7,391 nucleotides of DNA from a virus (Duplodnaviria > Heunggongvirae > Uroviricota > Caudoviricetes). A model generated the notes under the pieces. It ran no database searches and was not told the DNA's origin. It was given only the letters and a program-made list of their open reading frames with translations. The translations under genes were made by a program, and so were the position numbers. Below, piece by piece: positions 4,818 to 5,218 of this stretch; the stretch's first letter is position 1, and every line of letters begins with the position of its first letter. The DNA lies in the IMG/VR virus record IMGVR_UViG_2695420724_000001, positions 1 to 7,391 of that record; one strand, written 5' to 3'.

Positions 4818-5191
4818 AGAGGATAGATGGAGTTTAATGGCCATGAGTATCAAGCGGTCAAAAAGAAGTTCATCTATTCATTGAAAGCATAAGGCCATCT
4901 GAGTATATCCGTAATGATCTGGATATTGTCTATAACATCAATGACCGGACGATAGATATCGGTGAGCAGCGTCCTGTATGGCAGGGTGAGGCAGGTGAAA
5001 AAACGTCCTGCCATCAACAAGAATCAAGTGCATCCGCTCTCTGGACAGATGGAAAATTTATTGGATGCAAAAAGATATGAAATAACACCTGTATAGCACG
5101 GAGCTTTCTCTGACCGATGCACTTGAAGTTGTTAGGGCTGACCCAGCCTGCTGTTTCTTTAGGTAAGAGAAAAGAGATTTAGGAGATGAAA

Positions 5192-5218
5192 GGTCGCAGA
5201 GGTGCGGCCTTTTTTATT
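5192..5218 (+). terminator. intrinsic terminator ending the cI transcript
   Basis: 7-bp stem GGTCGCA/TGCGGCC (one G-U pair), loop GAGG, followed by TTTTTTATT (5210-5218). Confidence 0.75.

Follow-up and report, generated by a model that had tools for sequence, protein, structure and literature searches.

A DUF3024 pseudogene followed by a conserved hairpin behind the cI repressor gene of a lambdoid Stx-type prophage

The DNA downstream of the cI repressor gene was analysed in a stretch of 7,391 nucleotides (here called the window; positions 1 to 7,391 of the IMG/VR record IMGVR_UViG_2695420724_000001, Caudoviricetes) that comes from a lambdoid Stx-type prophage and represents its immunity and replication region. 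Very probably, positions 4827-5166 are an accessory gene of the DUF3024 family that has been inactivated and is at present a passive 3' tail of the cI transcript, ended by a conserved hairpin. The segment 4818-5218 in this way combines a pseudogene of a known family, not annotated as such, with a canonical terminator, and is an example of ordinary decay in the accessory slot of lambdoid immunity regions.

The segment has cI as its upstream neighbour on the same strand, and the first substantial ORF 3' of cI starts at 5319. A previous reading, made from the sequence only, had described here about 370 bp of apparently non-coding DNA, and the limits that it gave are right. The features around the segment are the following:

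2462-1761, minus strand: P, lambda-type, 233 aa
3358-2459, minus strand: O
3690-3391, minus strand: cII
4047-3832, minus strand: cro
4164-4817, plus strand: cI repressor of the LexA/S24 family (ORF list; Pfam Peptidase_S24 and HTH_3), the same as ECs_1185 of Sakai Sp5; stop codon TAA at 4815-4817
5219-5318, plus strand: intergenic leader of orf173, with overlapping palindromes at 5242-5260 (inverted-repeat search)
5319-5840, plus strand: orf173 (173 codons), the same as ECs_1184 (Sp5 ORF23)
6014-6136, plus strand: 40-codon ORF, phrog_21154
6142-6163, plus strand: second terminator (consensus terminator scan)
on the N side of the terminator 6142-6163: OL/PL operators
6570-6842, plus strand: N

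Between 4072 and 6082 the window is base-for-base the prophage Sp5 of E. coli O157:H7 Sakai, and positions 5210-5218 correspond to about 1256653-1256661 of NC_002695.2 (minus strand). The window as a whole is a mosaic, in which exact identity to Sp5 is confined to 4072-6082 (1-4071 and 6083-7391 were compared too) and coverage by any single phage record is at most 68%. Sp5 and the Stx1 phage carry a DnaB-like gene of around 1437-1452 bp in place of the lambda-type P of the window. Inside the minus-strand gene O, repeat units of the type TCCCTC...GAGGGA are found at 2936-3018, which gave a chance-level Rfam match to snR191 and correspond in position to the ori iterons annotated inside O of 933W.

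Regarding the gene downstream, orf173 has no match in Pfam or PADLOC and falls in phrog_2602, whose function is not known. A study in which lysogens of Sp5 lacking ECs_1184 could not be made suggested that this gene is needed for stable lysogeny (PMC5155283); the protein is not a strong RNA binder (PMC7618764). The leader 5219-5318 is 100% identical to that of strain 95NR1 and around 89% identical to that of Salmonella phage Oslo, and it is part of this downstream module, not of the pseudogene.

The DUF3024 pseudogene and its family

The nucleotide search of other prophages that the sequence-only reading had proposed was carried out against phages as a sensitive blastn, and gave 44 records 100% identical to the segment and 100 records at 80-90% identity. 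Among the matches listed, the latter lie over DUF3024 genes, unnamed hypothetical ORFs or unannotated DNA; where annotated, the match is a 342-bp gene directly after the repressor (cI or c2), named L0084 in 933W and "DUF3024 domain-containing protein" in P27, Stx2a_F451 and ST160. Intact 342-bp comparators were found directly after the repressor in 933W, P27, 95NR1 and Salmonella phage ST160, and the homologous proteins have 113 aa. Positions 4827-5166 are collinear with the whole of the intact gene, including its RBS and start codon, with two single-base gaps in the alignment. The parts of the pseudogene are:

4819-4822, plus strand: retained RBS, GAGG, 4 nt before the pseudogene ATG (read from the sequence)
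4827-5166, plus strand: DUF3024 (PF11225) pseudogene, around 81% DNA identity to the intact 342-bp genes; original stop TAA at 5164-5166
4858-4866, plus strand: lesion 1, a 1-nt deletion in GCGGTCAAAAAGAAG (pairwise alignment to 933W and three-way alignment)
4998-5004, plus strand: lesion 2, a 1-nt deletion, intact GAAACAAAC to GAAAAAAC in the window (pairwise alignment)
5083-5085, plus strand: lesion 3, a TGG to TAA nonsense mutation at Trp87 (pairwise alignment)
5167-5183, plus strand: degenerate second copy of the cI 3' end (alignment)

When the 933W protein was used as query in tblastn, three collinear pieces in three different frames were returned, the first with residues 1-13 in the frame of the ATG at 4827, the second with residues 12-58 in the next frame (81% identity), and the third with residues 60-112 in the third frame (83% identity, one internal stop), in such a way that three reading frames succeed one another at 4827-~4865, ~4866-5000 and 5002-5166. 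The stitched three-frame translation matches PF11225 with an E-value of 1.5e-22 and 80.4 bits over profile positions 4-111 of 112, for a family cutoff of 24.9 bits and a score of 106.5 bits for the intact L0084 of 933W; taken separately, each of the three pieces stays below the cutoff.

No uninterrupted ORF of around 113 codons is left in the window copy. The exact place of lesion 1 within the A/G run GTCAAAAAGAAG is ambiguous, and lesion 3 removes a tryptophan that all of the 17 intact homologues compared have in common. Six of the 35 family-invariant residues are changed (A2E, P25S, Y69C, R82Q, W87stop and G113R), compared with 0-4 changes in intact members in a leave-one-out control. Because of the two 1-nt deletions and the TGG-to-TAA change, the window copy is a pseudogene of DUF3024 and not a functional member of the family. 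The sequence-only reading had named alignment to a degraded known gene, such as a rex fragment, as the observation that would go against its own proposals, and such a gene is what was found, although DUF3024 and not rex. Its alternative suggestion of a remnant of a deleted gene holds in its first half, since a remnant is there, but there was no deletion of the gene, which is still there over its full length as a frameshifted DUF3024.

The known counterpart is L0084 of 933W, which is the same as ST933Wp24, P27 gp25 and ST160 gp23 (PF11225, phrog_3467, PADLOC PDC-S43). The window copy is like it in its location directly after cI, in the context of RBS and start codon, in the DNA identity over the 342 bp and in the hairpin downstream, and differs from it by its two frameshifts, its nonsense codon and the invariant residues lost. 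The ATG of the pseudogene lies 9 nt 3' of the cI stop, and the equivalent of its RBS, GGAGG, is annotated as such in phage P27 and conserved in 933W, 95NR1 and ST160.

With respect to the function of the family, the intact L0084 matched PADLOC PDC-S43 over its full length with an E-value of 4.4e-41 (the scan was run on this intact homologue). PDC-S43 is a candidate single-gene defence model, and the match of L0084 establishes no defence function. The intact protein falls in phrog_3467, a PHROG without known function, and phmmer found no significant similarity in the PDB (best match AvrPto, E 0.07). Its AlphaFold model (pLDDT 80.6) consists of a helix, five strands and a helix, for which Foldseek found no match in the PDB at E <= 1e-3. 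In a full-text literature search, DUF3024 came up in one paper and PDC-S43 in two, in tables or lists only, and no functional study was found.

Distant relatives at 36-44% identity were detected in many phyla by a contig search with an alignment as query; the same search with the single stitched protein found nothing, its peptide patterns being too specific. No conserved neighbour was found at 80 of these distant loci, with 62 Pfam families upstream and 93 downstream, none of them in more than 4 loci, and given such heterogeneous neighbours DUF3024 looks like a stand-alone gene. Its link to a repressor looks limited to the enterobacterial prophage clade.

Cassette structure and history of the allele

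In 933W and 95NR1 the DUF3024 cassette is bracketed by a perfect 15-nt direct repeat, TGAAGAGACGTTTGG, with a spacing of 371 nt, whose first copy corresponds to the last cI codons and the second lies after the DUF3024 stop. The copies of this cI end in the related sequences are located as follows:

L003 (933W), 2481-2495 and 2852-2866: 15-nt repeat copies
L007 (95NR1), 3010-3024 and 3381-3395: 15-nt repeat copies
L008 (Oslo), 2460-2485: ghost cI 3' end, between the phage's own cI stop and the shared hairpin

The order in 95NR1 is cI, an intact DUF3024, the same hairpin with its U-run, and a protein identical to that of orf173, and from the 3' arm of the hairpin onward it matches the window at 100% identity. 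The comparison shows a mosaic junction, and the order in 95NR1 is the ancestral-type arrangement. In Oslo there is no cassette, and between cI and a homologue of orf173 lie first the ghost cI 3' end and then the same hairpin with its U-run. The short conserved cI ends appear to be recombination joints through which immunity and cargo modules are swapped.

The slot between the repressor gene and PL is known to hold lysogen-expressed cargo transcribed from PRM (PMC3564112). Accessory ("moron") genes such as rexAB of lambda, stk of 933W and hex of 434 are transcribed with the repressor in lambdoid prophages, and the DUF3024 cassette sits in their slot, bracketed by the duplicated cI 3' end; in sequence it is unrelated to rex, stk and hex, and the window copy is dead. 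Prophages of Kluyvera and Yersinia and the CwR94 prophage, whose repressors differ, also have DUF3024 as the gene next to the repressor on its 3' side, and overall the gene in the repressor position can be of the S24 cI types, an HTH_3 protein (in the Rac-like Kluyvera prophage) or a 137-aa protein without family (in the Yersinia one). Downstream of the intact DUF3024, the Yersinia prophage carries an AAA_15/AAA_21 ATPase and a DNA methylase (L011 4599-7430), and the Kluyvera prophage an MqsA-like antitoxin protein (L010 4463-5787). Such differing downstream genes are consistent with a variable slot for cargo expressed in the lysogen.

The broken allele is fixed in many genomes. Over all 501 nt of 4818-5318 the window is matched at 100% by the 44 phage records, which are of the VT2-Sakai/Sp5 immunity type and include VT2-Sakai, Stx2 II, Nil2, 2851 and the PA series, and the allele is present at an identity of at least 99% in 234 complete E. 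coli records. The 80-90% class is found in 158 E. coli records, with a DUF3024 annotation in all of them among the matches listed, and no E. coli record falls between the two classes. The presence of the same broken allele in so many genomes indicates that it is not a sequencing error; the copies being all identical, they carry no information on present constraint.

Past constraint is apparent from the pairwise alignment with 933W, in which the dN/dS of the window copy is 0.09-0.14, so that most of the 19% divergence arose while the gene was functional, before its inactivation. On the window branch, around 14.5 nonsynonymous and 10 synonymous changes were counted over codons 1-85 by hand subtraction of three pairwise counts (window, 933W and ST160), which gives an omega of around 0.3, compared with around 0.05 on the 933W and ST160 branches. 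These values are consistent with a diverged allele that lost constraint later.

In protein searches, no intact protein with more than 81% identity to the window copy was found, and decay intermediates and recombinants turned up in other assemblies. In P0021 and in the metagenome contig L012 the first 90 nt of the intact type are joined to the window allele, and both share lesion 2 and the TAA with the window; P0020 has a compensating shift, and P0024 is an allele of the 933W type with an independent frameshift. From these decay states, the family seems to have been lost repeatedly, and its dead 3' part would move by recombination along with the downstream module.

In related enterobacterial prophages the intact gene is the first one after the repressor, co-directional with it and flanked by a short duplication of the repressor 3' end. 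In the course of events that we propose, the window copy is a diverged allele kept under purifying selection for most of its history, and then inactivated by the two 1-nt deletions and the nonsense codon.

The hairpin and the cI transcript

At 5192-5218, on the strand of the upstream gene, a GC-rich stem-loop is followed by a U-run, as in intrinsic terminators:

5192-5218, plus strand: predicted intrinsic terminator, with a 7-bp stem (5192-5198/5203-5209), a GAGG loop and a U6-A-UU tail

The hairpin, GGUCGCA-GAGG-UGCGGCC, has five G-C pairs, one G-U and one A-U, and is followed by UUUUUUAUU at 5210-5218 with the U-run at 5210-5215. With the flanking A/U pairs its stability is -15.9 kcal/mol (z = -4.3), and none of 200 shuffled sequences was as stable, in agreement with the strong hairpin and U-run that the sequence-only reading had seen at these positions. 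The consensus terminator scan of the window did not list it, and our guess is that the scan extended the stem into AAA/UUU pairs, using up the U-run; we take the miss as a failure of the tool rather than evidence against the hairpin.

One and the same stem is shared by 933W, 95NR1, Oslo, Sakai and L012, and the loop alone varies (GAGG, GAGA or GAAA). A U-run follows the hairpin in the window, 95NR1, L012 and Oslo but not in 933W, whose hairpin (L003 2876-2893) shows CCUGAUUC where the window has CCUUUUUU. In 933W the cI operon runs on into L0083-stk-L0081, and tM is annotated after these genes. With the same stem and no U-run in 933W, the shared structure would act as a terminator in phages of the Sakai type and let transcription pass in those of the 933W type. 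The comparison points to the hairpin as a conserved junction between repressor-side and cargo-side modules, and its version in the window has the form of a canonical intrinsic terminator. Like tM of 933W and tImm of lambda, it is a GC-rich hairpin with a U-run, found on the same strand as cI and 3' of the repressor operon. Unlike them, the terminator predicted in the window precedes orf173 instead of closing the cI-to-PL interval. A second one is located at 6142-6163.

No promoter-like site was found from cI to the hairpin. In RNA-seq data of the 933W-like phage Phi24B, cI, DUF3024, the RuvC-like gene and stk shift together (PMC10789677), and stk is cotranscribed with the 933W repressor according to work cited in PMC3564112. 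By sequence and by analogy with these phages it is reasonable to place 4818-5218 on the cI (PRM) transcript, and it is likewise reasonable to read the hairpin as its terminator. The GC skew is positive through 4750-5250 and the RNA is G-rich rather than C-rich, so early Rho-dependent termination seems unlikely. Today the segment is most likely a 3' untranslated tail of around 400 nt in the cI (PRM/PRE) transcript, passively carried, in which ribosomes probably still start at the retained RBS and ATG and are released after 21 codons, and the hairpin with its U-run probably stops most transcripts at 5210-5218, before orf173.

Alternative explanations and meaning

The small ORFs within the segment are:

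4827-4892, plus strand: 21-codon stump ORF, with 13 native DUF3024 codons, 8 out-of-frame codons and a stop
4962-5096, plus strand: 44-codon ORF with GTG start, the longest on the plus strand up to 5318 (ORF list)
4874-5020, minus strand: 48-codon ORF with TTG start (ORF list)
4938-5033, minus strand: 31-codon ORF with ATG start (ORF list)

The sequence-only reading had stated that no ORF longer than 21 codons existed on the plus strand, which is correct for ATG starts but not for the 44-codon GTG ORF, and that none was listed on the minus strand, for which the last two lines give small ORFs. None of the four has a family match on its own, and small ORFs of such size are expected by chance in non-coding sequence. 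In some O157 genomes PGAP annotates a 53-aa "hypothetical protein" with a CTG start at window positions 4919-5080, which is a middle fragment of the pseudogene.

That the segment, or its terminator-proximal part, has been co-opted as a regulatory RNA, specifically an sRNA derived from the 3' UTR of the cI transcript and ending at 5192-5218, as the sequence-only reading had considered, is quite unlikely. The segment would lie on a transcript expressed in the lysogen, Hfq-dependent sRNAs usually end in a hairpin with a U-tail, as it does, and Stx prophages yield by-product sRNAs such as StxS (PMC7547250); moreover, the whole 401 nt fold slightly better than shuffled sequences (z = -2.45, 3 of 100 as stable), although such a value is weak for a former coding region. 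On the other hand, no Rfam family matched in 4818-5318 when the whole window was scanned (cmscan, E <= 1; two chance-level matches fell in O), and the substitution pattern relative to the intact genes is of the coding type. None of the 64 orphan Hfq sites of Sakai (PMC4104026, Table S2) falls in 1256653-1257053, which is a weak negative, as that table lists called peaks only. The nearest one, EcOnc20 (Sakai 1255628-1255753, minus strand), corresponds to window positions 6118-6244, around 900 nt downstream, and covers the end of the 40-codon ORF and the second terminator. StxS, AsxR/AgvB and EcOnc20 of EHEC are short terminator-ended RNAs made from prophage promoters active in the lysogen (PMC7547250, PMC4104026), and the segment differs from them in having no reported Hfq site. 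If any terminator-ended sRNA comes from the cI-to-PL interval, the candidate is the EcOnc20 site and not 4818-5218. A Term-seq data set of Sakai exists as GSE143631 (PMC7547250).

Functional micro-peptides encoded at 4827-4892, at 4962-5096 or in the 53-codon CTG ORF are very unlikely, even if the good RBS and ATG of the first make its translation probable and the third has an annotation, given that all of them are pieces of a DUF3024 frame or reads out of that frame, that none by itself matches a family, and that their boundaries differ in the variants P0020-P0022, so that they are not conserved units. The 4827-4892 ORF, proposed as a micro-peptide gene in the sequence-only reading, is the stump of DUF3024. 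It is extremely improbable that the full-length protein is still made by programmed recoding, or that the lesions are sequencing errors. Each of the two deletions falls in or beside an A-run (4860-4864 and 4998-5003), possibly a slippery one, but two separate +1 shifts and read-through of the TAA would be needed, this codon differs from TGG at two bases, invariant residues have been lost too, and the allele is spread over the 44 identical phage records and, at an identity of at least 99%, the 234 E. coli records, obtained by different methods and in different years; allele spread, TAA and lost residues effectively refute both versions. In lambda, rexA follows cI directly, and this position alone would favour a remnant of a lambda-type rexA/rexB or of another known exclusion gene. 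The probability of such an origin is practically nil, as the sole Pfam match of the stitched protein is DUF3024 and none of the similar phage records listed is annotated as rex; the homology to DUF3024 rules out a rex remnant.

The inactivated DUF3024 gene in the untranslated tail of cI therefore stays as the preferred explanation. There is a small chance that the loss of DUF3024 in the VT2-Sakai/Sp5 type was not neutral, that the dead gene serves as a long structured 3' UTR which sets the stability of the cI mRNA or yields a terminator-ended regulatory RNA, or both. In the first case, DUF3024 would be a lysogeny-expressed, repressor-linked factor that acts in defence or exclusion or else modulates the cleavage of the repressor, and its inactivation would alter the stability, the induction or the superinfection behaviour of lysogens of the Stx2a lineage.

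For annotation, a stretch of around 400 nt considered as intergenic in VT2-Sakai/Sp5, among the most studied Stx2a prophages, becomes a DUF3024 pseudogene, where current records leave the segment blank or name its fragments "hypothetical protein". For those looking for sRNAs or micro-peptides, the interval is decaying coding DNA. Being intact in 933W-type phages and dead in Sakai-type ones, DUF3024 offers a natural pair for probing this defence-candidate family.
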